In this document: positions 1,913 to 20,187 of the stretch, piece after piece
Position numbering within the stretch: the stretch's first letter is position 1
How the letters are laid out: every line of letters starts with the position of its first letter
From: a virus
Lineage: Duplodnaviria; Caudoviricetes
DNA length: 64,000 bases
Strand: one strand, 5' to 3'
IMG/VR virus record: IMGVR_UViG_3300022919_000005
Span: 755-64,754 of that record
Program-made: the position numbers and the translations under genes
Notes under the pieces: model-generated
Databases searched by the model: none
What the model saw: only the letters and a program-made list of their open reading frames with translations
Told to the model about the DNA's origin: nothing

Positions 1913-1923
1913 GCCGCGACCCC

Positions 1924-5290: not shown

Positions 5291-5319
5291 ATGACGTGTT
5301 GCGGTGTATGGCCTATAAT
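5291..5319 (+). promoter_or_regulatory. sigma70-like promoter of the first early gene
   Basis: ATGACG-17 nt-TATAAT. Confidence 0.65.
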
Positions 5320-5352
5320 GATGACAGGACAAGGCGCTGTGCTTTGTCTAGT

Positions 5353-5369
5353 CGTCAGATCGTCTGACG
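5353..5369. repeat. 17-bp palindrome copy 1 (variant CGTCAGATCGTCTGACG)
   Basis: one mismatch to consensus; 18 nt before ATG 5388. Confidence 0.85.
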
Positions 5370-5387
5370 TTTTCAAGGAATAGACAC

Positions 5388-6131: not shown

Positions 6132-6147
6132 CACACAACGCGCTACC

Positions 6148-6181
6148 AAGCCCCGCTATCTTAGGATGGCGGGGCTTTTTT
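6148..6181 (+). terminator. intrinsic terminator
   Basis: AAGCCCCGCTATC-ttag-GATGGCGGGGCTT stem followed by a T-run. Confidence 0.85.
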
Positions 6182-6228
6182 GTGCCTGCCGCAGATCGAG
6201 GGGATCAACCTGCAACGCGCTGGCTGGT

Positions 6229-6245
6229 CGTCAGATCATCTGACG
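6229..6245. repeat. 17-bp palindrome copy 2
   Basis: CGTCAGATCATCTGACG, intergenic. Confidence 0.95.
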
Positions 6246-6275
6246 GTTAAGCTGTGAACATGGCGGGGATTATGT

Positions 6276-6350
6276 CGACACAGTAGTCGCACATTAACGC
6301 GTGGCTGCATGATTTAAGCTGGCAACGACACAGTAGTTTTGATTTAACGC
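6276..6350 (+). repeat. direct repeat CGACACAGTAGT-N6-TTAACGC, two copies 50 bp apart
   Basis: copies at 6276-6300 and 6326-6350; inverted core ACTACTGTGTC at 8080-8090. Confidence 0.7.
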
Positions 6351-6843
6351 ATGCGTCGTGTTGTCAGATGATCGCGTGAGAGAACGTGTGCGCAAACGCG
6401 GATGCGTGGGGGTTAGCGTATATAAGCACTTGCTAGGCTTCAGGTCTGGCTACCAAAAATGGCTAGTAGCATCCCACAACGTGTTATTTGCTTGTTGAAA
6501 TATAACGCGTTTACAAGGGCTTGCGCGCTTTGGCCCACCTTGATGGAGAGCGATTTTCATATAGTCTAGTCAACTATCTAGAAAAGTTAAGGAATAAAGA
6601 AGATACGCACACGAGATTTTTGTCGGCAGGGCTGTAGCTCTTAAACGCCGACCCCGCTCCACACCGATACGAAATCGAGGTGCCCCATGAGAGGCTTTCT
6701 TATATTTCCACCGGATAGTTGGCTTTATCTACAACCGGGACGCTCTAGCCCGCAGAAAACCGGGCTTCCGCACTAGACTTATTTGCTAGCCGGGATTATA
6801 CCACTGCTAGCACTTAGTTGACCCTCCCACACAGCGAGACACC

Positions 6844-7668
6844 ATGTTGAGCCCCATCATCACGCTTAATCTCTGCAAGAACTACCGCGAAAACGCGTGC
6901 GGCATCACCTACAAGCAGCTGGCGGCGATCACCCGCATCCCGCTCGATCGTGTCGCCGCGCTCGAGAGTAAGAGCAAGGACAAGGCGTGCGAACCGTGGC
7001 TCGACGAGGCTGTTCTGATTGCGCAAGCGCTCGGCATGGCGACGATCGTGCCCCTGATCAGCACCCTGTCCCTGCGCGAGATCGATACCGGCTTCGACGT
7101 GCAGGACGACCTCGACGTCTGGCGCACTGGCTGCCGCCTGCCCTTGCGTTTCGGCCTGCGACTGGCGCTCCGGTTCGGCTTCGCGGACCCTATCCATCTG
7201 GTCCCACCCCAGCCTGTCTATCGCGAGATATGGCGCATCGCCGGCGAGGAGCGGAACAACGCGTGCCCTTGGTGTAAGGCGCCCATTGTGGGGGAGCAGG
7301 GCCATCTTCCCACCTGCCTTCCGGCGCTGCTCTACGGCGCGCGGGATGCACCAATCTCCACCATCGGCGTCATGCCCAAGCCGCGGCGTCCGCACACCCG
7401 GCGGGAAGGATCGCGGCTGGCGCCTGGGCTCGCACCGCTGCGCGCGCGGCTCGGGCTCACGCAGGAGGAGTTCGCCAACGAGATCGGCAAGCACCCGCAA
7501 TATTACGCGCGGCTCGAGCAGCTGCGTGACCCGCTGACGCAGGACCTTGCCGAGAAGATCGGGGCGCTGTTCAAGGTGCCGCTGACCGAGGTCTATATCC
7601 CCGAAACGCTGCCGCCGGTGCCGCACAGAAACGTCAGATCATCTGACGATGTGGGAGGAGCGGCATGA
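6844..7668 (+). CDS. XRE-like transcriptional regulator with two HTH domains and a central Cys/His motif
   Basis: N-terminal GITYKQLAAITRIPLDRVAALE, C-terminal RARLGLTQEEFANEIGKHPQYYARLE, central CPWC...HLPTC. Confidence 0.75.
   Translation: MLSPIITLNLCKNYRENACGITYKQLAAITRIPLDRVAALESKSKDKACEPWLDEAVLIAQALGMATIVPLISTLSLREIDTGFDVQDDLDVWRTGCRLPLRFGLRLALRFGFADPIHLVPPQPVYREIWRIAGEERNNACPWCKAPIVGEQGHLPTCLPALLYGARDAPISTIGVMPKPRRPHTRREGSRLAPGLAPLRARLGLTQEEFANEIGKHPQYYARLEQLRDPLTQDLAEKIGALFKVPLTEVYIPETLPPVPHRNVRSSDDVGGAA
7632..7648. repeat. 17-bp palindrome copy 3
   Basis: exact; inside the 3' end of the regulator gene, 16 nt before ATG 7665. Confidence 0.95.
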
Positions 7669-7880
7669 GATCGCTGGTCGTGCCATGCGCTCTCGCCCCG
7701 AGCGACACGCTCAACATGGAAGCCGATGGCCCGGTGACCAAGGCCGGCTGCTCGCTGCTGATTACGGTAAAGGAAGAAGGATCGGAGGCGCACGTCAAGC
7801 TCACCCCCGACAGCGCGCACAAGATGTTCCGCTACCTCGCGCTCTGGCTGCACAATGGGGACCTGTCCGATGATGCGTGA
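7665..7880 (+). CDS. hypothetical protein (paralog of the next gene)
   Basis: GGAGGAG RBS, ATGA overlap. Confidence 0.75.
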   Translation: MRSLVVPCALAPSDTLNMEADGPVTKAGCSLLITVKEEGSEAHVKLTPDSAHKMFRYLALWLHNGDLSDDA

Positions 7881-8076
7881 CCTGACCATATTCTGCGCGC
7901 AGGAGCCCGACGATGTGCTGCGCGCCAAGGTGAAGCCGGGGATAAGCGGGCCCGAGGTCGTCATCAACTTCGACAGCGTGAGCGATGGCGCACCCACCCC
8001 GGCGATGATCGCACTCGACAAGCAGCGCGCTCGCGAGCTGTTCAACTGGCTCGGCATCTGGCTGCACAAATACTAG
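7870..8076 (+). CDS. hypothetical protein (paralog of the previous gene)
   Basis: MMRDLTIFCAQEPDDVL...LFNWLGIWLHKY. Confidence 0.75.
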   Translation: MMRDLTIFCAQEPDDVLRAKVKPGISGPEVVINFDSVSDGAPTPAMIALDKQRARELFNWLGIWLHKY

Positions 8077-8131
8077 CGCACTACTGTGTCTTTTGTCGTG
8101 CCATGTCAGGGGCTTAGGAGGCGCCCAGCCC

Positions 8132-8159
8132 TTGACTTTGGCCAAAATAAGCCTATTCT
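8132..8159 (+). promoter_or_regulatory. sigma70-like promoter with TTGGCCAA box
   Basis: TTGACT TTGGCCAA ... TATTCT, 16-nt spacer. Confidence 0.7.
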
Positions 8160-8205
8160 AAGAATTGCCGAAGGGGCTATTGCGCCTTCCGAATATCAGC
8201 CAAAA

Positions 8206-8222
8206 CGTCAGATCATCTGACG
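8206..8222. repeat. 17-bp palindrome copy 4
   Basis: exact; 19 nt before ATG 8242. Confidence 0.95.
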
Positions 8223-8241
8223 GTCATCAAAGGATCAGATC

Positions 8242-8484
8242 ATGGCCCTTCACCCTGTGCTCACCGCCGCCGACCAAGCCCGCATGTCCCCCAGCGAGCT
8301 GCTCCACTTCACCGACACGCCGGTCGCCCACATCGCCGCCTTCCGCGACTTCGAGCTGGACGCCATGCGGGAGCGCCGCCGCCGCCGCGATGCGCAGGAG
8401 ATGGCCGAGCGCCGCCGCAACCGCGAGATCGCCAACTTCTTCCGCGCCGCCGCCGACGCGGTGCTCACGATGGAGGCTTGCTGA
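8242..8484 (+). CDS. hypothetical protein
   Basis: AAGGA RBS, phage-like codon usage. Confidence 0.7.
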   Translation: MALHPVLTAADQARMSPSELLHFTDTPVAHIAAFRDFELDAMRERRRRRDAQEMAERRRNREIANFFRAAADAVLTMEAC

Positions 8485-8485
8485 C

Positions 8486-8743
8486 ATGCGCATTGCAAGC
8501 CCAATGGAGTCGGCGCAGCTGAAGCTGACCGAGCGCGCTATTGTCCTCGCACTGCGCGGCGCCACCAAAGAGTTCGACATCCACGAGCACGCGATCCGCC
8601 ATCTGGTAGAGCTGATCGACGCCCCCGACGCCGCCGCCATCGAGGCGATCGTGATCGGCTTCGCCACCGATCTGGTGGAGGCGCGGGCGGATGCGTCCCG
8701 GCTGATGCGTGCGCAGCTGCCGGACAAGATCACGGCGGATTAA
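8486..8743 (+). CDS. hypothetical protein
   Basis: GGAGG RBS; MRIASPMESAQLKL... Confidence 0.65.
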   Translation: MRIASPMESAQLKLTERAIVLALRGATKEFDIHEHAIRHLVELIDAPDAAAIEAIVIGFATDLVEARADASRLMRAQLPDKITAD

Positions 8744-8783
8744 CCGTTCGGTAACCATCAACGCATTAGCAGGAGTTATGGGC

Positions 8784-8963
8784 ATGCCCGTATCCGACCT
8801 GATCCGGCTCGGCTCTGCCAAGCTGACGCCCCAGCAGATTGCCGACATGGCGCTGCAGGAGGACCAAGCGGCGCGTGCCCTCGCGCGCTACCGCACCGAC
8901 CACCCCGCCATCGCCGCCCACTGGGCCGAGCGCGACGCGCTGTGCAAGCTGCTCAATCCCTAA
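8784..8963 (+). CDS. hypothetical protein
   Basis: AGGAG RBS; MPVSDLIRLG... Confidence 0.6.
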   Translation: MPVSDLIRLGSAKLTPQQIADMALQEDQAARALARYRTDHPAIAAHWAERDALCKLLNP

Positions 8964-8964
8964 A

Positions 8965-8981
8965 CGTCAGATCATCTGACG
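8965..8981. repeat. 17-bp palindrome copy 5
   Basis: exact; between a stop codon and the RBS of 9004. Confidence 0.95.
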
Positions 8982-9003
8982 GTCATCAACGAAGGAAACT
9001 ACG

Positions 9004-9471
9004 ATGCCGATCGACCTCACCAAACACACCGCCGACTGCCGAGCCATCACCGACGACGACGTCATGAGCGCGACGCGCGGCCTGCAGATGACGCGCCTGC
9101 GCACCTATCAGCTCGAGGAGCTGGTTCACGTCCACGCCAAGATCGACCTGTTCGCCAGCGCGGTCATCGTCGCCGCCGCGGCGAGCCGCCTGATGCTCAC
9201 CGGCGCGTTCGACGACGAGCAGTTCAGCACCGAGGAGCTGTGGGCCATGAAGCGCGCGCCCAGCGAGCTGTTCAACCGGCTGCTCGACAGCCTCCTGATG
9301 GAGCGCATGAGCGCCAGCTGGTACGAGGCGCTCGCGGGCGCCGCGCTGCTCCCCAGGCTCGACATCGACACGATCACCTATCCGTCGCTGGACGCATGGC
9401 GCGCTGTTGGCGACGTCATGCGCGGCGTGGTCGACGGCGTCACGATCGAGCACGTCGAACCCAAGGGCTAA
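9004..9471 (+). CDS. hypothetical protein
   Basis: GAAGGA RBS, 155 aa. Confidence 0.75.
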   Translation: MPIDLTKHTADCRAITDDDVMSATRGLQMTRLRTYQLEELVHVHAKIDLFASAVIVAAAASRLMLTGAFDDEQFSTEELWAMKRAPSELFNRLLDSLLMERMSASWYEALAGAALLPRLDIDTITYPSLDAWRAVGDVMRGVVDGVTIEHVEPKG

Positions 9472-9472
9472 C

Positions 9473-9489
9473 CGTCAGATCATCTGACG
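9473..9489. repeat. 17-bp palindrome copy 6
   Basis: exact; between a stop codon and the RBS of 9509. Confidence 0.95.
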
Positions 9490-9508
9490 ACTTGTTAGGA
9501 GATAGATC

Positions 9509-9778
9509 ATGGGCCAGCTCATGTCCCCAAACCACATGCCGATCGTCGGCCTGCTCGAAACGATCCCGGCCACCGCCCTCGTGTCCGACTGGACCCAGCA
9601 CGCAAACGGCAAGCTCGAGCCCGAATATGCCGGCGGCTCGACCGTCCACTGGGATGACCAGACGCCCGGCGTCTACACCAAGCAGATCGCGGTCGACGAG
9701 GACGGGGGCCAGTGGCTCCTGTCCGCCTGCACCTTCATCGACACGTCCGTCGATGCGCTCGAGGATGACGACTCGTGA
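9509..9778 (+). CDS. acidic hypothetical protein
   Basis: AGGAG RBS, 89 aa. Confidence 0.75.
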   Translation: MGQLMSPNHMPIVGLLETIPATALVSDWTQHANGKLEPEYAGGSTVHWDDQTPGVYTKQIAVDEDGGQWLLSACTFIDTSVDALEDDDS

Positions 9779-9888
9779 CCCGCGTGCTCGAGACCATCGC
9801 CGAGGCGGGCTACGCGCTCGCCTCCCACCCCATCCCCAGCCTGATCGTCGCGATCGTGCTGTTCGTCATCGGAGGGTCGCTGCCGTGA
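9775..9888 (+). CDS. small membrane protein (37 aa)
   Basis: GTGA overlaps at both ends; hydrophobic SLIVAIVLFVIGG. Confidence 0.5.
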   Translation: MTRVLETIAEAGYALASHPIPSLIVAIVLFVIGGSLP

Positions 9889-10058
9889 GCAAGACCAACT
9901 CGATCCGCAAACTACCGTGCCGAACGACCCCACCGCAATACGAGGTGCGCTGCCAGACCCGCGTGCTCGGCATCGCCTATCAGCGCGGCGCGCTGTTCGA
10001 GTTCAAGGGCCACGAGCTGACCAAGCGCCAGCTCCTCGCAAAGGCGCATAAGCTATGA
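9885..10058 (+). CDS. hypothetical protein (57 aa)
   Basis: GGAGG RBS, GTGA and ATGA coupling. Confidence 0.55.
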   Translation: MSKTNSIRKLPCRTTPPQYEVRCQTRVLGIAYQRGALFEFKGHELTKRQLLAKAHKL

Positions 10059-10345
10059 CCCCCATCGACTACATGACCGACGCCGACAGCTGGCTCGACA
10101 TGGACGTGGGCGATCATGCGATCGTGCTTGCCCATATCGAGAGCGCAGGTGGCGGACCCGGCGGCTCGATCATGGTCAGCTTCGCCGACTGGTCGAACCT
10201 CGTCATCCACAGCGACAACGCCGCGCTGATCTTCCCGCTGCTCAAGCAGGGGCTGGTCAGGATCAAGGTCGAGCGCACCGAGGACGGGCTTGAGGCGATC
10301 GCCGCATGGCGGGAGGGCGGGGCCCCGATCCCGCTGCGCAGCTGA
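10055..10345 (+). CDS. hypothetical protein
   Basis: translationally coupled ORF, 96 aa. Confidence 0.65.
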   Translation: MTPIDYMTDADSWLDMDVGDHAIVLAHIESAGGGPGGSIMVSFADWSNLVIHSDNAALIFPLLKQGLVRIKVERTEDGLEAIAAWREGGAPIPLRS

Positions 10346-10701
10346 TGGCGCGCGCGTCCTCGACCGAGGCGATCGTCTACCGCGAGAGTGAGCGCAAGCT
10401 CAAGGCCGCGCTGAAAGCCGCGCTGCTCGCGGTGCCGGTCGGCGAGATGTTCCTGCTCGTGTTCGACGCAGCCGGCAATTCATCGGTCTGCCTGTACGAG
10501 AGGATCGACGCCGCGCGCGTGGTGTGCCTCGTGACCAACAACGGCGTGGTGCATCCGAAGGGCGTCAAGGACGGCTACGAGATCAAGAAAGCGCCGTTCG
10601 TCTCCGATGCTCGGATCATCCAGCTCGGTCAGCGCGAGACCGCCCGCCGCCACATGCTTGTCGTGCATGGGCTGGGCGTGCGCGCGATCGCGCTGCCCTA
10701 A
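10345..10701 (+). CDS. hypothetical protein
   Basis: TGATG coupling; MARASSTEAIVY... Confidence 0.65.
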   Translation: MARASSTEAIVYRESERKLKAALKAALLAVPVGEMFLLVFDAAGNSSVCLYERIDAARVVCLVTNNGVVHPKGVKDGYEIKKAPFVSDARIIQLGQRETARRHMLVVHGLGVRAIALP

Positions 10702-10702
10702 C

Positions 10703-10719
10703 CGTCAGATCATCTGACG
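10703..10719. repeat. 17-bp palindrome copy 7
   Basis: exact; intergenic. Confidence 0.95.
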
Positions 10720-10740
10720 ACTAGCTATGGGATAACTACG

Positions 10741-11277
10741 ATGCCGATGTTTGGACCTATCCGCACCCAGGCGGACCTCACCCGCCTGATCCCCCGGCAC
10801 ATGCGCGCAAGCGTCGATGCCGGCGGGGCGCCAGCCTACCGCGTCACGGCGCCGGATTACGACCGCCTGCTGGTCGACACGTTCCTCGTCGAGACGGTCA
10901 TGGGCACCGGCGGGCGCGTGCCGCAGCTGCTGGGCCGGATCGTCTCGCCGAACGACCCCTCCGCCTATCCGCGCGCCAAGCTCACCAAGGAAGGCCGGCT
11001 GGTCTACGTGTGCTGGGCTGGTGGCGATACCACCGGCTACGCGGTCAGGATGCTCGCCGAGCCCACCGCGACCGTCTACCGGCATGTGATCCTGCCCAGC
11101 GATCCCCGGCACGCGATGGTCGCCGCGTTCAAGCTCGCCTGCGACATGCGCCGCGCATGGCAGGGTGGGAAGTGCAAGATGTCTGACGCGGTGCTGGTCA
11201 AGGCGCTCGGCGTCGAGCCCTTCGGCAACGCCCCGGAGGTGCTCGACATGGGGGACATGGCCGACCTCGAACCTTGA
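10741..11277 (+). CDS. hypothetical protein
   Basis: 178-aa ORF, phage-like codon usage. Confidence 0.7.
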   Translation: MPMFGPIRTQADLTRLIPRHMRASVDAGGAPAYRVTAPDYDRLLVDTFLVETVMGTGGRVPQLLGRIVSPNDPSAYPRAKLTKEGRLVYVCWAGGDTTGYAVRMLAEPTATVYRHVILPSDPRHAMVAAFKLACDMRRAWQGGKCKMSDAVLVKALGVEPFGNAPEVLDMGDMADLEP

Positions 11278-11302
11278 CTTTGGCCAAATAACAAGCTATA
11301 AC
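11274..11302 (+). promoter_or_regulatory. sigma70-like promoter with TTGGCCAA box
   Basis: TTGACT TTGGCCAA ... TATAAC, 17-nt spacer. Confidence 0.75.
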
Positions 11303-11341
11303 TTGTTACAGGATAAGAGATCAACCCGATAGGAGCCCGAC

Positions 11342-12244
11342 ATGGCCGATCGAACCATCAAGCCCACCAGCCTCGATTACAACTGCACGCACGGCGACTA
11401 CCGTGCCGTCTGGGGCGACGTCCGCATCCGCGCCGTGCAGGACGGTGACGTCGGCAACCCCTTCGAGGAGGAGGACGGCCACTGGCCGATAAGCGTCAGA
11501 TCATCTGACGGTTTCACGGATTACGACGCCGACGGGCAGACCAGCGAGACGCGCAACCCGCTCAACCGCTTCGGCGACGCGCTGCTAGTGCATCTGCAGG
11601 TCAACATCGCCAAGATACTGGGCACCACCGTCAAGGCAATGATGACGGATTACGAGCACACCATCGACGCCGAGCCGGTCGCATATCACCGCGACGGCAA
11701 CGACCTGCGGGTGGTGATCGAGAACGAGCTAAGTGAGGTCCGCGACAGCGAGCTGTTCGACAAGTTGGTCGAGCTTTACGAGCTGCTCGGCATCCCCGCC
11801 TATGCCAAGACGGTGCGCGGCAACTGCCAGGGCGACTGGGCCGAGGTGCTGGTCGTCGCGCCGCCCGAGATCGTCGAGAAGTTCGGCATCGACCTGATCA
11901 AGCTGCAGATGGACGCCAAGGCCGCGCTCACCATGCCCGAGCTGGGCAGCGACGATCTGCCGGCCGCGATCGCCAAGCGTGTCAACGCGCAGTGGGATGA
12001 ATGGCTCGGCGACACCGCCGACCTGTACGGACATTGGGCGTGGGGCGAGTGCTACGGCTATGTGATCGACCGGATCGAGGTCGACGAGGACGGCGACGAG
12101 ATCGATGCCCACGAGTGCGAGACGCTCGGCTCGTGCTGGGGCTATTACGGCTCGGACCATGACAAGTCCGGCCTGCTCGAGAGCGCGCTCGCCGAGGCCG
12201 AGAGGTTCGTGACCGAGCCCGCCCCTGTGATGGAGGACGCATAA
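11342..12244 (+). CDS. acidic hypothetical protein with WGECYGY...SCWGYYG motif
   Basis: AGGAG RBS; 300 aa, very Asp/Glu-rich. Confidence 0.8.
   Translation: MADRTIKPTSLDYNCTHGDYRAVWGDVRIRAVQDGDVGNPFEEEDGHWPISVRSSDGFTDYDADGQTSETRNPLNRFGDALLVHLQVNIAKILGTTVKAMMTDYEHTIDAEPVAYHRDGNDLRVVIENELSEVRDSELFDKLVELYELLGIPAYAKTVRGNCQGDWAEVLVVAPPEIVEKFGIDLIKLQMDAKAALTMPELGSDDLPAAIAKRVNAQWDEWLGDTADLYGHWAWGECYGYVIDRIEVDEDGDEIDAHECETLGSCWGYYGSDHDKSGLLESALAEAERFVTEPAPVMEDA
11494..11510. repeat. 17-bp palindrome copy 8 (inside a CDS)
   Basis: exact; reads as VRSSDG in frame. Confidence 0.95.
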
Positions 12245-12627
12245 TGGCTGATCCTGTCTCGGTCGCCGCGTTCGACCTCGCCTTCGCCGCCATGTGCATT
12301 ATCGAGGAGATCGTCGCGCCGGCGAACGACGGCGCCGGCGAGCCGTGGGATGCGTACCGCCAGCGCGTCGGCATCAACGAGGTGCGCGGGACCGTCATCA
12401 ACTGCCTCGCCGCCGATTGCGACAAGGCATGGACGCGCACCAACAGGCTGTACGAGGAGGCATACGAGCGATACCAGATCGCCAAGGCCGAGAGCGGTGA
12501 CGGCACCACCACGGTGCCTGCGCCCAATGACCCCGGATCGTTCGATTACGAGTTCGTGCCCTTCTGGCTGCGCAACGCGGTCGACTGGTCCGATACCGAG
12601 ACCGGGCCGCGGGTGCGGGGGTCATGA
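12244..12627 (+). CDS. hypothetical protein
   Basis: GGAGG RBS, TAATG coupling. Confidence 0.7.
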   Translation: MADPVSVAAFDLAFAAMCIIEEIVAPANDGAGEPWDAYRQRVGINEVRGTVINCLAADCDKAWTRTNRLYEEAYERYQIAKAESGDGTTTVPAPNDPGSFDYEFVPFWLRNAVDWSDTETGPRVRGS

Positions 12628-12959
12628 GCGCGCCGACTACCGTGCCGATCGAAAAGGTCCGGCAGCTCGCCGACAGCTATTACGAGCTGATGGTGCTCAA
12701 CGACCAGAAGGCAGGCACGATGGCCCAGATGATCCGCGGGTGCATCCAAGCGCTCACCCAGGACACCAACGAGGCGGCGCGCGCACTCGAGCGGGAGCGC
12801 CGGCATCTGAAGGGCTACAAGGCGATCGTGCGCATGCACGAGCCGGCCAAGAAGGTGCGCGAGGATCGCGAGCGCGCCTTCCTCTACCTGCAGTGGCTCG
12901 CCACGCAGCTCGAAAACCAAAGCGTCAGATCATCTGACGGTATCAGCACGAAGGAATAG
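12624..12959 (+). CDS. coiled-coil hypothetical protein
   Basis: ATGA coupling, 111 aa. Confidence 0.7.
   Translation: MSAPTTVPIEKVRQLADSYYELMVLNDQKAGTMAQMIRGCIQALTQDTNEAARALERERRHLKGYKAIVRMHEPAKKVREDRERAFLYLQWLATQLENQSVRSSDGISTKE
12923..12939. repeat. 17-bp palindrome copy 9
   Basis: exact; 23 nt before ATG 12963. Confidence 0.95.
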
Positions 12960-12962
12960 GCC

Positions 12963-13889
12963 ATGTATCTTGGCGTCACCTCCCACCAGTCGGCCCCGCG
13001 CGTTGCCAGCTTCGCCGACGCCCAGCGCGCCCTCGAGCGCGCATCCACCACCCCCACCGGCCGCGCTCGCGCTGCCAAGCCCGACGGCTTCCCGCTGGGT
13101 GGACACAGCAAGTCCGTCACCTGGGTGCGCGAGATCGACGGGGGCTCGATTGCCTTCATGCTCTACCAGACCGACGTCGTCGTGTGGGCTCCCGACAACA
13201 GCGTCCACATCGACAACTTCGGCACCGTCACCACCAGCGGCTTTGCCGCGCGCTTCCTGCCGGCCGGTATCTCGCTCAACCACACGGTCGAGAAGCGCGG
13301 CGCGTCGGGCGGCAACAAGGCGATCCAGTATCGCAGCAGCACCGAGGGCTGCGCATGGGGCTCGCGCCGCATGTGCCAGGGCGACGTCGTGCGGTTCGTG
13401 GAGGACGGCGACGTCTGGGTGCCCGACGAGGACACGCTCGATCCCATGACCTTCCCGGTCTACGATACCAGGGCGATGCGCGATCTGGGCAAGCGCTACC
13501 ACCTCAAGGATTTCGAGCTGTGGCTGTCGATGGCGCCGATGCACCTCGACCTCGAGCACGAGGGCTTCGACGTTGACGACTGCATGGCGGCGCTCGAGAA
13601 GCGCGACTTCCGCACCGCCGCTGTCCACCTGCCCACCATCACGATCCCGAACGGCTGGGGCGCGGCCGAGCGTATCAAGCCGCTGCCGATCGCCGTCGCC
13701 GACAGCAACAAGCCGATCACGCTCGGCTCGATTGGCAAGCTGCGGCTCGCCATCCTTGACGATCAGGGGCTGATGGCCGAGCAGCGGGTCACTACGATGC
13801 CGGTGCGCGAATACCGCAAGCGCATGGCGCTGGTCCGCCAGCTCGAGGGCATGGGGCTGTGCGGCGGCGATTACGGAGCAAGCTCATGA
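12963..13889 (+). CDS. hypothetical protein
   Basis: GAAGGA RBS, 308 aa. Confidence 0.8.
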   Translation: MYLGVTSHQSAPRVASFADAQRALERASTTPTGRARAAKPDGFPLGGHSKSVTWVREIDGGSIAFMLYQTDVVVWAPDNSVHIDNFGTVTTSGFAARFLPAGISLNHTVEKRGASGGNKAIQYRSSTEGCAWGSRRMCQGDVVRFVEDGDVWVPDEDTLDPMTFPVYDTRAMRDLGKRYHLKDFELWLSMAPMHLDLEHEGFDVDDCMAALEKRDFRTAAVHLPTITIPNGWGAAERIKPLPIAVADSNKPITLGSIGKLRLAILDDQGLMAEQRVTTMPVREYRKRMALVRQLEGMGLCGGDYGASS

Positions 13890-14215
13890 CCGAGGGACCG
13901 CGCACCGTCACCACCGGGCTCAAGGCCGGCGACGTCGTCGCGGTCGCCCAGCTGCTCACCCCGCGCGACGGTGGGAACGATTATTGGTGGCGCACCTTCC
14001 GGGTCGTCACCAAGGTTCATTCCAGCCGGTTCGCGGCGCTGCTGATCCTCAAGCTGCACCCCGACATGGACAAGGACCTGCGGCTGGTCGACTTTGGTGA
14101 GAACCCGTCCAAGATGGTCATCACCCAGCTCCCCGAGCCCTTCCCGCAGGGCGTCGCGGCGCTCTACATGAAGGCGCTCCACAAGGGCTGGTTCAAACCC
14201 GGCGAGGACGCCTGA
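13886..14215 (+). CDS. hypothetical protein
   Basis: GGAG RBS, ATGA coupling. Confidence 0.7.
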   Translation: MTEGPRTVTTGLKAGDVVAVAQLLTPRDGGNDYWWRTFRVVTKVHSSRFAALLILKLHPDMDKDLRLVDFGENPSKMVITQLPEPFPQGVAALYMKALHKGWFKPGEDA

Positions 14216-14218
14216 CCC

Positions 14219-14247
14219 TTGACTTTGGCCAACTTCTGGCCTAGATT
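14219..14247 (+). promoter_or_regulatory. sigma70-like promoter with TTGGCCAA box, upstream of the AAA+/vWA operon
   Basis: TTGACT TTGGCCAA ... TAGATT, 17-nt spacer. Confidence 0.75.
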
Positions 14248-14292
14248 GTAACAATCAACAGCACGTTATGCTTTGATCTCTCCCACCCCAAG

Positions 14293-14309
14293 CGTCAGAT
14301 CATCTGACG
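14293..14309. repeat. 17-bp palindrome copy 10
   Basis: exact; 22 nt before ATG 14332. Confidence 0.95.
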
Positions 14310-14331
14310 GTTATCAATGAAGGAATATCCC

Positions 14332-15372
14332 ATGCAGATCGTCAACATGGACACCATGAAGGGTCTCATTCAGCAGGTCGCGATCAAGAAGCACCGCCCG
14401 CTGTTCCTGTGGGGCGCGTCGGGCATCGGCAAGTCCGAGGGCGTCGCCCAGGCAGCCGCGGAAGCCGACGGCATGCTGGTCGACATCCGGGTCAGCCAGT
14501 ACGAGAGCATCGACTTCCGCGGCATCCCCGATGTGCAGGCAGGCTCGACCGTCTGGAATATGCCGGCCACCCTGCCCTTCAAGGGCAACACCCGCTTCGA
14601 GATGTTCGATCCGAACAAGCCGATCGTGCTGTTCCTCGACGAGATCAATCAGGGCGATCCGAGCGTCATGTCGGTCTGCTACCAGCTGACCAATGACGGG
14701 CGTATCGGCGAGCACGAGCTGCTCGACAACGTCGCCATCGTCGCCGCCGGCAACCGGGATCAGGATCGCGGCGCCACCAACCGCTGGCCCGCCCCGCTCG
14801 GCAACCGCGGCACGCACGCCGAGCTGGTCGCCGACATCAAGCGCTGGTCGAAGTGGGCAGGCAAGCCCGAGAGCAAGACGCCCGCCGAGCTGATCGGCTT
14901 CCTGAACTTCCGCAGCGAGCTGCTGCACACGTTCGATCCGGCCAAGCCGGTCAAGGCGTTCGCAACGCCGCGCTCGTGGTCGTTCGTCGCCGAGGATATG
15001 TTCGACACTACGATGTCGGAGGATGTGCGGATCGCTTCGATGTCGGGCTCGGTCGGCGAGGGCCCGGCGGTCGAGCTGACCGGCTTCCTCGACATCATGA
15101 AGTCGATCGTGCCGATCGAGGAGATCATCCGCAACCCCGAGGGCGTCAAGGTCGAGGAACGCATGGACCTGCAGTGGGCGATGGCCACCCACGTCGCCGG
15201 ACACATGGACAAGACCAACGCCGACCAGCTCCACAAATTCCTGCGCCGGCAGGAGCCGGAGATGGTCGTGATGGCGTGGACCTTGGCGATCAACCGCGAC
15301 GAGGACATCACCGACACCAACGCGTTCCTCACCGGCTACGCCACCGAGTACCGCTCGCTGTTCCAGAACTGA
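14332..15372 (+). CDS. MoxR/CobS-like AAA+ ATPase
   Basis: Walker A GASGIGKS, Walker B LFLDE, sensor I AAGN, PLGNR arginine finger, TPRSW sensor II. Confidence 0.9.
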   Translation: MQIVNMDTMKGLIQQVAIKKHRPLFLWGASGIGKSEGVAQAAAEADGMLVDIRVSQYESIDFRGIPDVQAGSTVWNMPATLPFKGNTRFEMFDPNKPIVLFLDEINQGDPSVMSVCYQLTNDGRIGEHELLDNVAIVAAGNRDQDRGATNRWPAPLGNRGTHAELVADIKRWSKWAGKPESKTPAELIGFLNFRSELLHTFDPAKPVKAFATPRSWSFVAEDMFDTTMSEDVRIASMSGSVGEGPAVELTGFLDIMKSIVPIEEIIRNPEGVKVEERMDLQWAMATHVAGHMDKTNADQLHKFLRRQEPEMVVMAWTLAINRDEDITDTNAFLTGYATEYRSLFQN

Positions 15373-15404
15373 TCGGCGCCGGGGCGGCTCCGGTCGTCCC
15401 AAAC

Positions 15405-15421
15405 CGTCAGATCATCTGACG
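15405..15421. repeat. 17-bp palindrome copy 11
   Basis: exact; 20 nt before ATG 15442. Confidence 0.95.
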
Positions 15422-15441
15422 ACTAGCTATAGGACATCGCC

Positions 15442-16608
15442 ATGAACGCGATCACCACCAAGCACCCGAAATTGAGCAAGGCCAAAGCACGCCTGCTCAT
15501 GGATCATCCGTTCTTCGCCACGCTGCTGATCCGCAGCGAGATACAGGTCACCCGCGAGCACAACGGCAGCCCGATCGACACCGCCGCCACCGACGGCGAC
15601 AACATCTTCTTCAACCCCGACTTCCTCGACCAGCTGACGGTCGACGACACGATGTTCGTGCTGTGCCACGAGGTCGGGCATGACAGCCTGCTGCACTCGA
15701 TCCGGCTCGGCGCGCGCAACCCCGAGGACTGGAACGGTGCGGCCGATCACGCGATCAACCTGATGCTGCTCGATCAGGGCATGAAGATGCCGAGCAAGGT
15801 GCCAGGGCTCGCCGATCCGAAGTACAAGGGCCTGTCGGCCGACCGCATCTACGACCAGCTCCGGCGCGAGAAGAAGCCCGGCGGTGGGAGCGGCAAGCCG
15901 GGCAAGCCGGGCAAGGGCGGCTCGCAGCCGGGCAACATGCTCGGCGGCGACGTGCTGCCGAACAAGGCCTCCACCCCCGAGGAAGCGGCCAAGGTCGAGC
16001 AGCGCGCCAAGCAGCGCGTCGCATCGGCTGCCAACATGGCACGCATGGCCGGCAAGCTCACCGGCGAGCTGGCCCGCATGGTCGACGACTGCCTCGAGAC
16101 CAAGGTGCTCTGGACGGACGTGCTGCGCGATTACATGACCAAGGTCGTGAAGGCGCGCGACAACTGGACGCGTCGCAACCGCCGGTTCGACAAGTTCTAC
16201 CTGCCCACCCGCTTGAGCAAGCAGATGGGGCCGATCGTGTTCATCCCCGATACGTCGGGCTCGATGTTCCACGGCGACGACCTCGAGAAAATCTGTTCGG
16301 AGATGGCGCATTGCGCCGATCAGACCCAGCCCGAGCACATCCTCGTCGTGTGGGCTGACGCCGCGGTCAAGGGCGAGCAGCGCTTCGCCCCGCAGGACTT
16401 CAGCTACGCGGCGCTCGAGCCCAAGGGTGGCGGCGGCACCGACATGCGCGTGCCGCTCAAGCACGTCGAGCAGTACGACCCCCAGGTCGTGGTGCTCTGC
16501 ACCGATGGCTACACGCCGTGGCCGGATGTCGCGCCGCCCTATCCGGTGATCATCGTCAACACGACGCGCACGAAGTGCCCCGACTGGGCCGAGGTGATCG
16601 AGATATGA
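15442..16608 (+). CDS. DUF2201-type HExxH metallopeptidase fused to a vWA domain
   Basis: TAATDG, HEVGH, WN.AAD..IN; MIDAS residues DTSGS...GGGTD...TDG. Confidence 0.88.
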   Translation: MNAITTKHPKLSKAKARLLMDHPFFATLLIRSEIQVTREHNGSPIDTAATDGDNIFFNPDFLDQLTVDDTMFVLCHEVGHDSLLHSIRLGARNPEDWNGAADHAINLMLLDQGMKMPSKVPGLADPKYKGLSADRIYDQLRREKKPGGGSGKPGKPGKGGSQPGNMLGGDVLPNKASTPEEAAKVEQRAKQRVASAANMARMAGKLTGELARMVDDCLETKVLWTDVLRDYMTKVVKARDNWTRRNRRFDKFYLPTRLSKQMGPIVFIPDTSGSMFHGDDLEKICSEMAHCADQTQPEHILVVWADAAVKGEQRFAPQDFSYAALEPKGGGGTDMRVPLKHVEQYDPQVVVLCTDGYTPWPDVAPPYPVIIVNTTRTKCPDWAEVIEI

Positions 16609-16916
16609 GGGCCGATTACGCGCTGTTCCTTGGCGATGGACAGCGCGTGCCCACCACCATGCTCGAGCAGCCGTGGTACGGCTGGGATTACGTTGAGCCC
16701 GGCACTGGCGTGGTCGATCAGGGCTGGCGTCCCCTGTTCATGGCCTGCCGCATGCGACGCGGGTGGCGTGTGTTCACGATCGACGTCGGTGTGCATTACG
16801 GCCGGGTCGGGCAGCTTCGGGTGCATGACTGGTGGAAGCCGGCCGGCACCGACGAGGTGAAGCGCTTTCCCACCATCGCCGCCGCCGAGATGTATTTGAG
16901 GATGACAGCGAAATGA
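16605..16916 (+). CDS. array member 1 (shared C-terminal motif)
   Basis: ATGA coupling to the vWA gene; ends KRFPTIAAAEMYLRMTAK. Confidence 0.75.
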   Translation: MRADYALFLGDGQRVPTTMLEQPWYGWDYVEPGTGVVDQGWRPLFMACRMRRGWRVFTIDVGVHYGRVGQLRVHDWWKPAGTDEVKRFPTIAAAEMYLRMTAK

Positions 16917-17272
16917 CCCAGCAGCTGCGTAACATCGAGGTCGGCATGCACTACCAGTGCTGCGGCTACATCGTTGAGGGAGGCGGGGTCACCCCTGCCC
17001 CCTTCGAGGGTTGGGCGACGTTCACCCAGATCGTGCAGCAGAAGCCCGACAAGGCCATGCTGGCGATCGGCCGGCGCGTGCCGCTGGTGCAGACCGGCGC
17101 GACTACCGTGTCGAGCGCGCCGGCACCCAAGGGGCTGTTCCTCGTCTGGGACCTGCGGCGGCTGCCCAAGACGACCGCCGACGACCTGCTCAACGCGCCG
17201 GCGCCGGTGCTGACCAACCCCACCGAGGACGGCGCGGTGATGCTCGCGCTGATCAAATATGGACAGCGCTGA
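16913..17272 (+). CDS. array member 2
   Basis: ATGA coupling; ends NPTEDGAVMLALIKYGQR. Confidence 0.75.
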   Translation: MTQQLRNIEVGMHYQCCGYIVEGGGVTPAPFEGWATFTQIVQQKPDKAMLAIGRRVPLVQTGATTVSSAPAPKGLFLVWDLRRLPKTTADDLLNAPAPVLTNPTEDGAVMLALIKYGQR

Positions 17273-17561
17273 TCGCCCGCCCGAGTGGGACCTGCAGGAG
17301 CAGTGGGCCGCGGAACTGGGCTCGACGTTCGTGCAGGTGTGGTTCTACGAGCGCCGCCGGCGGCGCTTCCTGCTCGAGCCCCAGGTCGACGACGACGACA
17401 CGTTCCTCGAGTGCTGCAGCGAGGCGATGCGCCGGATTGGCGCGAACCTCGCGCTGTGGGACGACGGGGAAATGTGGAATGTACTCGATCGCCGCACCGG
17501 CGACACCAAACGCTACCCCAGCAAGGAAGCTGCAGAAATGATCGCGATCCACCGTGGCTGA
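17259..17561 (+). CDS. array member 3
   Basis: ends KRYPSKEAAEMIAIHRG. Confidence 0.75.
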   Translation: MDSADRPPEWDLQEQWAAELGSTFVQVWFYERRRRRFLLEPQVDDDDTFLECCSEAMRRIGANLALWDDGEMWNVLDRRTGDTKRYPSKEAAEMIAIHRG

Positions 17562-17850
17562 CCCCGTCAGCTGCTCATTCTTCGACACGCTGTTCGGCGC
17601 GCAGATCAGTCAGGCCGACATCCTGCCCGCGACCGGGCTGGGTGGTATGGCTAACCAGCTGCGCACCGCAGCGCTCAACTTCGCAGCCGAGGGTGGCGCA
17701 ACGCTGTTCGCCATCCCCGATCTGGTAATCAATAACGGCTCGTGGCTTGTGTTCGAGGTCGGGACTGGGCGGTTCGCCTATTTCCGCGCCAAGGCACCCA
17801 GCCGCGACGCCGCCGAGATGTGGATGATGCACCGTGGTGAAAAGCTCTGA
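17554..17850 (+). CDS. array member 4
   Basis: ends KAPSRDAAEMWMMHRGEKL. Confidence 0.75.
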   Translation: MADPVSCSFFDTLFGAQISQADILPATGLGGMANQLRTAALNFAAEGGATLFAIPDLVINNGSWLVFEVGTGRFAYFRAKAPSRDAAEMWMMHRGEKL

Positions 17851-18157
17851 CGCCGACGACAAGATGGTCATCTTCCTGGCCCCCAACCAGCAGCTCGACA
17901 TCCGCATGATGGACCGCTCGGGCGACGCGATCTGCAACGCCGCGCGCACGCTCAAGGCCACCCATTTCGTCTGCATCGACGGCTGGTCGATCGCCGAGGA
18001 CGCACCGATCTGGGGCGTGTTCGAGATGCGCCGTGCCGACCCGAACGGCGGTGGGCCCGGCCGCTGGTCGATCCCTGACCCGATCAAGACCTATGTCGGC
18101 GCCGCGGCCGACGGCGCGATCATGTACGCGATCCACAAGTCGAGGAGTGCCGCGTGA
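17834..18157 (+). CDS. array member 5
   Basis: ends KTYVGAAADGAIMYAIHKSRSAA; start codon uncertain. Confidence 0.7.
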   Translation: MVKSSDADDKMVIFLAPNQQLDIRMMDRSGDAICNAARTLKATHFVCIDGWSIAEDAPIWGVFEMRRADPNGGGPGRWSIPDPIKTYVGAAADGAIMYAIHKSRSAA

Positions 18158-18426
18158 TGGCCAGCAAATATATCATCGTCGTCAAGGATGGCGTGATCAA
18201 ACAGCACTCGATCACCCCGCCCCAGGCACCGCGCAAGCAGCTGGTCGCGTGGCTCGGCCGATGCGTCGAGGCGGCGCGGCGTGCGGGCGTCGATCGCTAT
18301 GCGTTCCGGCATGCCGAGCGCTGGTACGTCTACGCCAAGCTCTCCTCCGGCGTGTGGGCCGCTGCGCGGTCGTTTCCCACCGAGGACGGTGCGGCGATGT
18401 GGCTCCTGCACCGGAGCGCGACATGA
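18154..18426 (+). CDS. array member 6
   Basis: GAGGAG RBS; ends RSFPTEDGAAMWLLHRSAT. Confidence 0.75.
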   Translation: MMASKYIIVVKDGVIKQHSITPPQAPRKQLVAWLGRCVEAARRAGVDRYAFRHAERWYVYAKLSSGVWAAARSFPTEDGAAMWLLHRSAT

Positions 18427-18749
18427 TGGCGACCTATACGATCACCGCGATCGGTCCCAACCGGACGTTCGCATGCAAGGTGGCGGGAGCCCCGAACGAC
18501 AGCCGGATCGCCAACTTCGCAGAGGCGAAGCACTGCCCGCTGGCGACGCGCTATTTCCCGAGCAAGAAGGGCTGGGTGCTGTTCGACCTGCGCACTGCGG
18601 TCAAGGTGAACATGGGCGTGCGCGGCCGGAACGTCGCCGTCTGGAAGGGCATCAAGCGCCACCCCAAACTGTTCACTACCGAGGACGCCGCGGTCATGTG
18701 GGCGATGCACAAGCTGCAGGCGAACAGTCAGCTGCCGCTTGATGGTTGA
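18423..18749 (+). CDS. array member 7
   Basis: GGAG RBS; ends KLFTTEDAAVMWAMHKLQANSQLPLDG. Confidence 0.75.
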   Translation: MMATYTITAIGPNRTFACKVAGAPNDSRIANFAEAKHCPLATRYFPSKKGWVLFDLRTAVKVNMGVRGRNVAVWKGIKRHPKLFTTEDAAVMWAMHKLQANSQLPLDG

Positions 18750-18774
18750 CCTTCGATCCATTACGTCGTAGTAT
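18746..18774 (+). promoter_or_regulatory. sigma70-like promoter
   Basis: TTGACC-17 nt-TAGTAT. Confidence 0.65.
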
Positions 18775-18803
18775 GTTATACGTTGAATAGGGAGATCACT
18801 GAC

Positions 18804-19226
18804 ATGAAGCTGTACCCCATCCCCGGAGGTCTCTGGGCCGGCACCGAGGCCGACTGGAAGAAGCAGATGAAGGCCCGCGGGCTCAACCCCAAGGACTTCG
18901 AGGCCAGTAAGACGCGCGAGGTGCCGGTCGCCAAGGCGGACCTGCTCGAGTGGCTGAACTTCTTCGCGGTCGATGTGTACCGCAACGGCGGCGCGGCCAC
19001 TACGGTGCCGGAAGCTGCCGAGCCCCCGGTCGACGTCGGCGCGCTGCGCGCCCTGCATAACCCCACGGCAGCGCAGCAGGTCGCCCAGCAGCTGCAGGAC
19101 CCCGGCGCCGACCGTGGGCCCCTCATGCTGCAGACCCTGTTCGACAACGCGCCGATCGGCGCGCAGCTGCAGCTCGCTACCGCGGCGATCGACAACGCGC
19201 TCACGCAGCTCGCGCCGCGCACCTAG
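18804..19226 (+). CDS. hypothetical protein
   Basis: GGGAG RBS; MKLYPIPGGLWAGT... Confidence 0.75.
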   Translation: MKLYPIPGGLWAGTEADWKKQMKARGLNPKDFEASKTREVPVAKADLLEWLNFFAVDVYRNGGAATTVPEAAEPPVDVGALRALHNPTAAQQVAQQLQDPGADRGPLMLQTLFDNAPIGAQLQLATAAIDNALTQLAPRT

Positions 19227-19231
19227 TCCCA

Positions 19232-19265
19232 TGTCACACTGCGCTATTGGTAGCGCAGTGTGGCA
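19232..19265 (+). other. strong intergenic hairpin without a U-tract
   Basis: TGTCACACTGCGCTA-ttgg-TAGCGCAGTGTGGCA. Confidence 0.7.
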
Positions 19266-19273
19266 CCCCAAAG

Positions 19274-19290
19274 CGTCAGATCATCTGACG
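19274..19290. repeat. 17-bp palindrome copy 12
   Basis: exact; 24 nt before ATG 19315. Confidence 0.95.
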
Positions 19291-19314: not shown

Positions 19315-20187
19315 ATGTCCCACGCACTTATCGAACGCGCTATGGTCATGAACCTGTCGATCGGCATCTGGCAGGGCTACCGCCTCGACCGTGACGCATC
19401 GGCCAAGGTGACCACCGACGCCGGCGCCGCATCGGACGCCGCGCGCGTCAACAAGCACCTGATCCCGAAGGCGGCGCTCGCCCCGATCGTCACCGCGCAG
19501 AACGCGATCCGCGCGCACTTCTACACCAACACGCTGCCCTGGCGCGACAACGGCGATCGCCTGATGCCGCGCAAGATGTTCGAGACCTTCATCCCCAAGC
19601 ACGAGCAGCTGGTGCAGGCGTTCAAGGACGAAGTCGAGCTGTTCCTCGCCGAGAAGTACCTCGCGGCGATCGAGCAGGCCGGGTTCCGCATGGGCGCGAT
19701 GTTCAAGCGCGAGGACTATCCGCCGGCATCCGAGCTGCGCCGCAAGTTCTACGCTGACCTCGAGATCGACGCGATCACCACCGCCAACGATTTCCGGGTG
19801 CAGATCGATCAGGCCCACGTCGACAAGGTCAAGGCGGCGATGACCGCCAACGCCGAGGCGCGGCTGCAGACCGCCATGATCGATGTGTGGAAGCGCATGG
19901 CTGACGCGGTGGGCCACTTCCAGGCGAAGATGTCCGACCCCAAGGCGGTGTTCCGCGACTCGACGGTCAAGAATATCGGCGAGATGCTCGACCTGATCCC
20001 CGGCCTCAACGTGCTCGACGATCCGCAGATCGAGCAGGTGCGCGGCATGATCATGACGGCGATCGGCGGCAAGGAAGCCAAGGAAATCCGCGAGGACGCC
20101 GCGCTGCGCGGCCAGCTCGCCGGCGACGCCGCCAAGATCATGGACGTGATGGGCGGCTTCATGAAGGCATACGGGAGCAACACCTGA
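19315..20187 (+). CDS. DUF3150-like protein
   Basis: L.I..W.G...D, K.LIPK, TLPW.DNG.RL, YP...ELR.KF, LNV.DDP pattern typical of the family found with phage AAA+/vWA pairs. Confidence 0.7.
   Translation: MSHALIERAMVMNLSIGIWQGYRLDRDASAKVTTDAGAASDAARVNKHLIPKAALAPIVTAQNAIRAHFYTNTLPWRDNGDRLMPRKMFETFIPKHEQLVQAFKDEVELFLAEKYLAAIEQAGFRMGAMFKREDYPPASELRRKFYADLEIDAITTANDFRVQIDQAHVDKVKAAMTANAEARLQTAMIDVWKRMADAVGHFQAKMSDPKAVFRDSTVKNIGEMLDLIPGLNVLDDPQIEQVRGMIMTAIGGKEAKEIREDAALRGQLAGDAAKIMDVMGGFMKAYGSNT

Follow-up and report, generated by a model that had tools for sequence, protein, structure and literature searches.

Old paralogs in tandem: a variable set of small proteins encoded behind an AAA+/vWA-peptidase gene pair in N4-like phages

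What is the role of seven small, overlapping genes that follow a conserved ATPase and peptidase gene pair in a phage genome? The question is raised by positions 14,332 to 18,749 of a 64,000-nucleotide (nt) stretch of DNA, referred to here as the window, from the virus record IMGVR_UViG_3300022919_000005. The record is 64,754 bases long and rated complete, and the window is nearly all of it. The phage is a distant N4-like podovirus from leaf litter, as judged by PHROG scans of 41 open reading frames (ORFs), with a genome GC content of 65%. In the locus, an AAA+ ATPase gene and a gene for a protein combining an HExxH metallopeptidase-like region with a von Willebrand factor A (vWA) domain are followed by seven genes for proteins of 90-119 amino acids, named s1 to s7. 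An initial annotation, made from the sequence alone, had described this arrangement, and all of these genes are present where it placed them. The gene pair is already known. The seven small proteins are anciently duplicated members of a single unnamed family of globular, mostly basic proteins of ~100 amino acids, which in one clade of phages occurs as variable tandem sets linked to the pair.

All seven genes are on the plus strand. The first, s1 (16605-16916; 103 amino acids; isoelectric point (pI) 9.3), begins in an ATGA overlap with the vWA stop codon. It is followed by s2 (16913-17272; 119 amino acids; pI 8.7), s3 (17259-17561; 100 amino acids; pI 4.7), s4 (17554-17850; 98 amino acids; pI 5.1), s5 (17834-18157; 107 amino acids; pI 6.0), s6 (18154-18426; 90 amino acids; pI 10.3), and s7 (18423-18749; 108 amino acids; pI 10.2). 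From the vWA gene through s7, successive junctions overlap by 4, 4, 14, 8, 17, 4, and 4 nt. Because of these overlaps and a GC content at third codon positions (GC3) of 0.79-0.91 in the called frame, s1 to s7 are real coding genes.

The proteins share a C-terminal motif. The initial annotation quoted a C-terminal string from each protein and a preceding aromatic W-x-V-F strand, all of which occur letter for letter, and held that the C-termini align. Pairwise similarity among the seven is weak (best phmmer E about 5e-5 in a database of seven), and the only invariant residues are one Ala and one Met. The alignment was assessed by a leave-one-out procedure, in which a profile built from six C-termini was used to rank the omitted protein among 828 six-frame ORFs and 1000 shuffles of that protein. 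The omitted member ranked first of 1,828 in all seven trials, at E values that range from 0.05 for s1 to 2e-6 for s7 (s2, 0.013; s3, 0.025; s4, 4.5e-4; s6, 1.3e-5). The C-terminal motif is therefore real, and the C-termini align beyond shuffled controls. Against the full family profile, s2 and s3 score E 4.5e-9 and 6e-8. Weak pairwise scores, together with the many long spurious ORFs typical of GC-rich genomes, would suit the view that the motif is a product of chance or composition, or that some of the seven are spurious, but the first rank of every member argues otherwise. So do the orthologs of s1 to s5 and s7 in other contigs, a further representative that groups with s6, 109 database relatives, the high GC3, and confident structural models. 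With these, a chance or compositional origin of the motif is ruled out and retains virtually no likelihood.

How far does the family extend? Among 1.84 billion representative proteins searched with a profile, 109 matched at E <= 1e-3. All are 56-144 amino acids long, none is fused to a larger protein, and most span profile positions about 11 to 100. By best BLASTP match, the 113 listed proteins, which include those of the window, are divided into 61 s7-like, 37 s5-like, 6 s4-like, 4 s1-like, 2 s3-like, 2 s6-like, and 1 s2-like. The s7 subgroup is thus the commonest and the s5 subgroup is widespread; s6 belongs to a rare subgroup with a single further representative among the 113 listed, P0107. 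The median pI of the family is 9.9 and 81 of the 113 members exceed 8, while pI inside the array spans 4.7-10.3. Several Arg and Lys positions are invariant or nearly so in the s7-like group.

The initial annotation regarded the N-termini as unrelated and the C-terminus as a small docking module carried on unrelated heads. The docking module does not hold up, since most members are one homologous domain of ~100 amino acids. An hhalign comparison of the s5-like with the s7-like group gives 101 aligned columns (98%, E 1.5e-13). The family profile spans s3, s5, s6, and s7 for the most part; of s4 and s2 it covers about 60-80 residues. An unrelated N-terminus would fit the s1 group only, which shares just the C-terminal half. 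Its hhalign match to the s7 group is confined to the last 53 columns (90%), and its match to the s5-like group covers 21 columns (33%). Because of this confinement to the last 53 columns, the first 50 residues of s1 may be a different module.

AlphaFold2 models were obtained for s7 (predicted local distance difference test (pLDDT) 90.5; predicted template modeling score (pTM) 0.76) and s5 (pLDDT 92.8; pTM 0.85). The core topology common to both is strand, strand, helix, strand, strand, strand, helix. The s7 model has an extra hairpin where s5 has a loop, giving five strands after the first helix versus three. In these predicted models the aromatic W-x-V-F strand is the fourth strand. The C-terminal motif takes in the last strand and the beginning of the final helix, where the P-[TS]-x-[DE]-[AG]-A-x-M-[WY]-x-x-H stretch falls. 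This stretch would then supply a helix N-cap, in the form P-[TS]-x-[DE], and core residues, as part of the domain core rather than as a separate docking tag. An acidic residue had been suggested to engage the metal ion-dependent adhesion site (MIDAS) of the vWA domain, but no acidic residue is invariant across the seven; the Asp of D-A-A-V-M in s7 aligns with Ala in s1.

Known families offer no counterpart. The seven proteins match nothing better than E 0.08 in Pfam, PHROGs, NCBIfam, PADLOC, and PDB sequences. A profile of 24 s7-like proteins has one match in the PDB, at E 1.5, and no Pfam family matches more than one of these 24 members. Foldseek searches, with s7 against the PDB and BFVD and with s5 against the PDB, returned nothing at E <= 0.001. 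Comparison with 48,161 chains by VIA-align gave best Z values of 4.7 for s7 and 4.2 for s5, in the range of common arrangements. Class II tRNA-synthetase anticodon-binding domains ranked highest with both models, and YkuJ, MmoD, YaiA, and AP2 came next; the single best row for s5 was a GH38 mannosidase, and rows for Dmd, AcrIF4, and AcrIF9 appeared for s7 only. The predicted models of whole s5 and whole s7 therefore have no convincing fold relative, and a new fold is not claimed. An ESM Atlas search had a best feature score of 0.80 and returned no family, and is given no weight. Nucleotide searches (blastn) of the region against phages gave no match, and tblastn of s5, s6, and s7 against 50,697 phage records found nothing below E = 1. 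A word-index search found three outside relatives only. Related-locus searches with a single vWA protein and with the s5-like alignment found no relative, nor did a limited scan of one-per-species bacterial and archaeal genomes with two patterns.

Related loci were collected by way of AAA+ and vWA protein relatives, and the family profile was then run over their six frames; at least 13 of the 119 listed non-self vWA relatives, on 62-67 kb contigs, lie outside this comparison of set composition. The initial annotation had suggested looking in other phages for arrays that sit next to AAA+/DUF2201 genes and vary in copy number, and the profile matches do form such tandem sets. The window has seven members. 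Two IMG/VR contigs (loci L003/L017 and L004/L005/L015; vWA identity 58%) have four, orthologs of s1, s2, s3, and s7, directly 3' of the vWA gene. Four are also present in L006, a 62-kb metagenome contig (vWA identity 48%), where the vWA stop codon is overlapped by one unrelated small gene and the s3-, s4-, s5-, and s7-like genes come next. In L016 (vWA identity 43%), three highly diverged members are found directly 3' of the vWA gene. They carry motifs such as R-K-F-P-T-L-D-A-A and R-R-F-P-T-E-E-A-A at profile E values of only 0.97 and 4.2, and two of the three match each other at E < 1e-3. L018 and L021 (vWA identity 46-48%) have two members about 2 kb downstream, behind a second small-protein family, and the short contigs L007-L009 have two adjacent members each. 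The s7-like gene is last in every set and lies directly 5' of a homolog of the window gene at 18804-19226 (L003, L006, L007, and L008).

Among related phages, members directly follow the vWA gene in four of six contigs, and this placement, with start/stop overlap, is kept down to 43% vWA identity. The AAA+/vWA pair is upstream in all seven contigs that have members and enough flanking sequence, and no member was seen apart from a pair in the fetched loci. Only one clade of environmental N4-like podoviruses carries the family, with 2-7 members in the pre-replicative block. Since these contigs all come from that single clade, whose gene order is conserved, the linkage does not count as independent evidence for a functional tie. 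The pair also occurs without members detectable by the family profile, in N4, in Acinetobacter phage At2, and in 7 of the 12 IMG/VR loci whose sequence continues downstream (vWA identity 26-32%).

The paralogs appear to be older than the phages that carry them. In a quick tree, s1, s2, s4, s6, and s7 (five of the seven) pair with proteins of other contigs rather than with each other, at Shimodaira-Hasegawa approximate likelihood ratio (SH-aLRT) supports of 80-99 (s1 clade, 99; s2, 94; s4, 82; s6, 87; s7 within a clade at 99). Positions of s3 and s5 are unresolved in this tree, many of its forks are weakly supported, and the seven require seven label changes. Orthologs of s1 are L003 10299-10667 and the proteins P0048, P0081, and P0110, and the ortholog of s2 is L003 10900-11253. 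Genes similar to s3 are L003 11243-11584 and the L006 gene ending at 8373; P0008 is the s4 ortholog (53% identity), with a similar gene at L006 8354-8671. From the pairing of five paralogs with orthologs in other contigs and from the seven label changes, the duplications are judged to predate these phages, and the sets to differ mainly by loss and retention.

Two further observations concern these relatives. In L003, the s3 and s7 orthologs are separated by a 44-codon open stretch (11586-11717) that is similar to the s5 N-terminus (score 41, reached by none of 500 shuffles) and looks like the remnant of a deleted s5-like member. An s4 remnant at this place was rejected because 432 of 500 shuffles score as high. 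The second small-protein family, seen in L018 and also in L021, is unrelated and comprises eight tandem proteins of 74-108 amino acids directly 3' of the vWA gene. In L018 they occupy 7125-8836, 9513-9809, and 10632-10946 and have the C-terminal motif P-D-E...A-K-W-R-L-L-G. Their profile finds nothing in the window at E <= 0.01.

What is the machine that precedes the array? The AAA+ gene (14332-15372, plus strand) encodes a 346-amino acid ATPase of the N4 gp24 type (phrog_1297, E 1e-80) that is 27% identical to N4 gp24 by tblastn. A further open ATG lies at 14317, and the start at 14332 is favored because the called relative P0234 has 346 amino acids. The protein has a Walker A motif, GASGIGKS, and a Walker B DE, and G28, G31, G33, K34, D103, and E104 are invariant in 23 relatives. 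Its PF07728 (AAA_5) score is borderline, 22.5 bits against a cut-off of 22, and no NCBIfam model matches at its cut-off. Among PDB sequences, midasin AAA modules match best (E 1.4e-5), with VCP-like and Clp ATPases next. By sequence, the protein is an AAA_5-group ATPase with a borderline score, and these matches do not separate MoxR proper from another AAA_5/helix-2-insert ATPase.

The vWA gene (15442-16608, plus strand) encodes a 388-amino acid protein of the N4 gp25 type (phrog_1314, E 9e-86), 28% identical to N4 gp25 by tblastn. It matches PF13203 (DUF2201_N; E 1e-46; 160.2 bits against a gathering score of 23.2) and PF09967 (DUF2201; E 2e-17; 63.7 bits against 26.4). Because H76, E77, and H80 of the HExxH motif and the MIDAS-type residues D270, T271, S272, and S274 are invariant in 24 vWA relatives (61-72% identity), the protein is probably active. 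In each of the 22 loci examined, the AAA+ gene precedes the vWA gene. The two need not be adjacent: in L016 the AAA+ gene (2904-3923) and the vWA gene (about 5980-7056) are separated by ~2 kb of other genes. MoxR-type ATPases act through vWA cofactors, as in CbbQ/CbbO, NorQ/NorD, and RavA/ViaA. A complex prediction for the AAA+ protein, the vWA protein, and s7 was neither for nor against binding; its score is non-specific, as a control in which another chain took the place of vWA scored too. In the literature on DUF2201 and N4 gp24/gp25, the sole role found for the pair is in virion assembly or processing, as proposed in the available portion of a study of jumbo phages, where the MoxR and vWA-metallopeptidase proteins are put forward as chaperone and co-chaperone (PMC7824862).

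Are these genes expressed together? One promoter had been proposed before the block and another at the end of the array, and both sigma-70-like sites were found. The first (TTGACT, 17 nt, TAGATT; 14219-14247, plus strand; 9/12 in a consensus scan) is in the gap 5' of the AAA+ gene. The second (TTGACC, 17 nt, TAGTAT; 18746-18774, plus strand) overlaps the s7 stop codon, ahead of an ATG at 18804. Both are putative promoters. The extended sigma-70-like pattern is found at 14219 and 18746 only, and the count of sigma-70-like sites in the region is not significant by itself because 3 were observed versus 1.8 expected. The single operon that had been proposed would be subdivided by hairpins before the AAA+ and vWA genes. 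These are copies of a perfect 17-nt palindrome, CGTCAGATCATCTGACG, with a 7-bp stem and a 3-nt loop, which occurs 13 times between window positions 5353 and 24987, versus 0.32 expected. Copies include those at 8965, 12923, 14293, 15405, and 19274. The copy at 14293-14309 (plus strand) lies 22 nt 5' of the AAA+ start codon, that at 15405-15421 (plus strand) lies 20 nt 5' of the vWA start codon, and that at 19274 precedes the gene at about 19315. There is no copy in 15422-19273, hence none within the array. Eleven of the 13 copies are 14-24 nt 5' of an ATG, with a Shine-Dalgarno-like GGA between. The copy at 11494 is intragenic, and that at 24971 has an inverted loop.

In L003, a differently spelled palindrome, GTCACGTNACGTGAC, has 12 sites within 465-16840 (for example 7972, 9109, and 12531) and occupies matching positions, ahead of the AAA+ gene, of the vWA gene, and of the gene homologous to window gene 19315-20187. 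The hairpin structure and placement are conserved between the window and L003, and the sequence is changed. The hairpins are like the promoters of the N4 virion RNA polymerase in their 7-bp stem, 3-nt loop, and template-strand purine at the loop center, as far as these are described in the accessible text of PMC4496689. By this analogy, CGTCAGATCATCTGACG may be a set of N4-type hairpin promoters, or it may be an RNA or operator element. If the hairpins are promoters, then the seven small genes belong to one unit with the vWA gene, and the AAA+ gene is a unit by itself. The vWA gene and the seven small genes are probably one transcript.

The array sits within a plus-strand pre-replicative block, upstream of the genes for DNA polymerase, helicase, and primase, and the structural genes are on the minus strand at 41.6-63.2 kb. 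The explanation preferred here, tentatively and with a likelihood somewhat short of even, is that s1 to s7 are a diversified battery of small pre-replicative binding proteins. The set would be made together before replication, probably from the vWA-gene transcript. Each paralog would present a different surface and charge on the same scaffold and thereby bind a different partner, either a host protein or a nucleic acid. The role would be in host takeover or counter-defense, and the sets would change through gene gain and loss. Several points weigh against this explanation. The adjacency to the vWA gene is tight and conserved to 43% vWA identity with start/stop overlap, and a functional tie to the pair would account for this just as well. 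Nucleic-acid binding, too, would agree with the mostly basic charge. Moreover, no match to known anti-defense, takeover, or regulator families was found in Pfam, PHROGs, NCBIfam, or PADLOC.

A functional tie is the core of what the initial annotation proposed. There, the small proteins would be interchangeable adaptors, or else clients, of the AAA+/vWA-peptidase machine, with the shared part docking and the variable surface bringing targets for remodeling or cleavage. This is possible, though on balance unlikely. The placement of members behind the vWA gene in the window, L003/L004, L006, and L016, the presence of the pair upstream in every contig with members and enough flank, and a vWA partner that is probably active, given its invariant HExxH and MIDAS residues, all agree with it, as do the use of vWA cofactors by MoxR-type ATPases and the chaperone and co-chaperone roles proposed for the phage pair. 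The linked cases, however, all belong to one syntenic clade and are not independent. In L018 and L021 another small-protein family takes the place directly after the vWA gene, with the members ~2 kb further on, and the pair does without members in N4, At2, and 7 of 12 IMG/VR loci. No acidic residue is invariant, and it is a whole domain, not a tag, that most members have in common. More doubtful still is the bolder form of this proposal, in which the array would be swappable specificity subunits of a gp24/gp25-type machine, each docking on it by the conserved face of the core and delivering a different host protein, for example a defense protein, for ATP-driven remodeling and cleavage. If so, paralog gain and loss would retune which hosts the phage overcomes, and this would be the first multi-adaptor MoxR/vWA system and a function for a pair conserved across Schitoviridae.

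Would the basic charge point to nucleic acids instead? Small basic regulators of phage transcription or translation, acting for example on the 17-nt hairpins found ahead of many pre-replicative genes or on single-stranded DNA like the N4 RNAPII cofactors, would account for the family median pI of 9.9, the pI values of s6 and s7, and the invariant or near-invariant Arg and Lys residues of the s7-like group. The 13 hairpins of the window and the other palindrome at the same positions in L003 would provide sites. Both models weakly resemble AP2/integrase arm-type domains, at Z 3.0-4.0, which is far below convincing and within the range of chance arrangements. However, three members are not basic, s3 and s4 being acidic (pI 4.7 and 5.1) and s5 near neutral (6.0); the proteins have no sequence match to DNA- or RNA-binding families, and seven paralogs exceed the apparent need of one regulatory task. 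This explanation is rated as quite unlikely. It is highly improbable that the small proteins are virion assembly factors, or substrates processed or chaperoned by the pair. The array does adjoin the pair, and the Acidianus two-tailed virus is said to have a demonstrated assembly role for its MoxR/vWA proteins. The array is, however, in the plus-strand pre-replicative block, far from the minus-strand structural genes, and it has no match to a PHROG structural family. Its copy number differs among close relatives, which is unusual for structural components. The role itself is one proposed for the pair in jumbo phages, in the part of the source that was available (PMC7824862).

The surrounding genome is of the N4 type. 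PHROG scans identify an N4-type major head protein, large terminase, DNA polymerase, helicase, and primase. A virion-RNA-polymerase-like gene (51786-58784, minus strand) encodes 2,332 amino acids, compared with ~3,500 residues for the N4 virion RNA polymerase as given in the available text of PMC13434306. Its match to the virion RNA polymerase PHROG is restricted to residues 1091-1359 (E 2.5e-15), and its C-terminal third matches families without assigned function. Immediately 5' of the AAA+ gene are two genes, 12963-13889 (308 amino acids) and 13859-14215 (118 amino acids), neither of which has a family match in PHROG and NCBIfam scans. Their synteny is kept in L003 and L006, and the 118-amino acid gene is also present in L013 and L014 (35-44% identity). 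The gene at 13859-14215 was rejected as a member of the second small-protein family of L018, whose profile has no match to it at E <= 0.01. On the 3' side of the array, gene 19315-20187 encodes a 289-amino acid protein without a family match in PHROG and NCBIfam scans. Homologs in the distant N4-like contigs L019, L023, and L025-L028 are 1-2 kb upstream of the AAA+ gene, whereas in the window the gene is downstream of the vWA gene. Because its distant homologs sit near the AAA+ gene, this protein may belong with the pair.

The interest of the array depends on its relation to the pair, which is conserved across N4-like phages (Schitoviridae) and found in jumbo phages too. Should the small proteins bind the pair, they would lead to the substrates of the AAA+/vWA-peptidase. 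If they do not, they are a new pre-replicative phage family without a detectable fold relative. If the hairpins are N4-type promoters, they are an unusually large set and would revise the picture of early-gene timing in such phages.

Several known systems resemble parts of this locus. The AP2 and integrase arm-type fold consists of three strands and a helix, with a motif like x-F-x-T-x-E-E-A, and by eye the C-terminal strand-turn-strand-helix and the F-P-T-E-D-A-A stretch of the array family look similar to it. With each model, AP2 entries come within the first 50 structural rows (6sy0, Z 4.0 and 3.8; 7wq5, 3.5; 7et4, 3.2; 3jtz, 3.0). These Z values are under the level of a true shared fold, and the array family has an extra N-terminal strand-strand-helix-strand unit. 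Pfam AP2 has no match at E <= 1 among the seven and none among 24 s7-like proteins. Tandem small early phage proteins, such as those of anti-CRISPR loci and T4 Dmd, are alike in size, tandem layout, copy-number change, pre-replicative position, and the lack of cellular relatives found. They have no sequence relation to the array, and their structural scores (Dmd, Z 4.1; AcrIF4, 3.4; AcrIF9, 3.3) are at noise level. Unlike fast-evolving takeover or counter-defense genes, the array paralogs are old, each conserved across phages, and are not recent ORFans.

The gene pair has counterparts too. The pair of jumbo phages has the same make-up as that of the window, with the vWA domain fused to an HExxH domain, according to the part of PMC7824862 that was available. 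As in CbbQ/CbbO, NorQ/NorD, RavA/ViaA, and the Acidianus two-tailed virus, an AAA_5-type ATPase here adjoins a vWA protein, whose MIDAS residues are intact. None of these systems is known to carry a tandem family of small paralogs. Further counterparts are N4 gp24 and gp25 and their Schitoviridae homologs, which belong to the same PHROG families (phrog_1297 and phrog_1314) as the pair in the window. N4 gp25 is annotated as an "HNH endonuclease" and is in fact a DUF2201-type peptidase/vWA protein. The genomes are also of the same type, with a giant virion RNA polymerase-like gene and N4-type head and replication genes. They differ in what follows the pair: in N4, gp25 is succeeded by a dCTP deaminase gene and unrelated small genes, whereas in the window its counterpart is succeeded by the array of seven paralogs.

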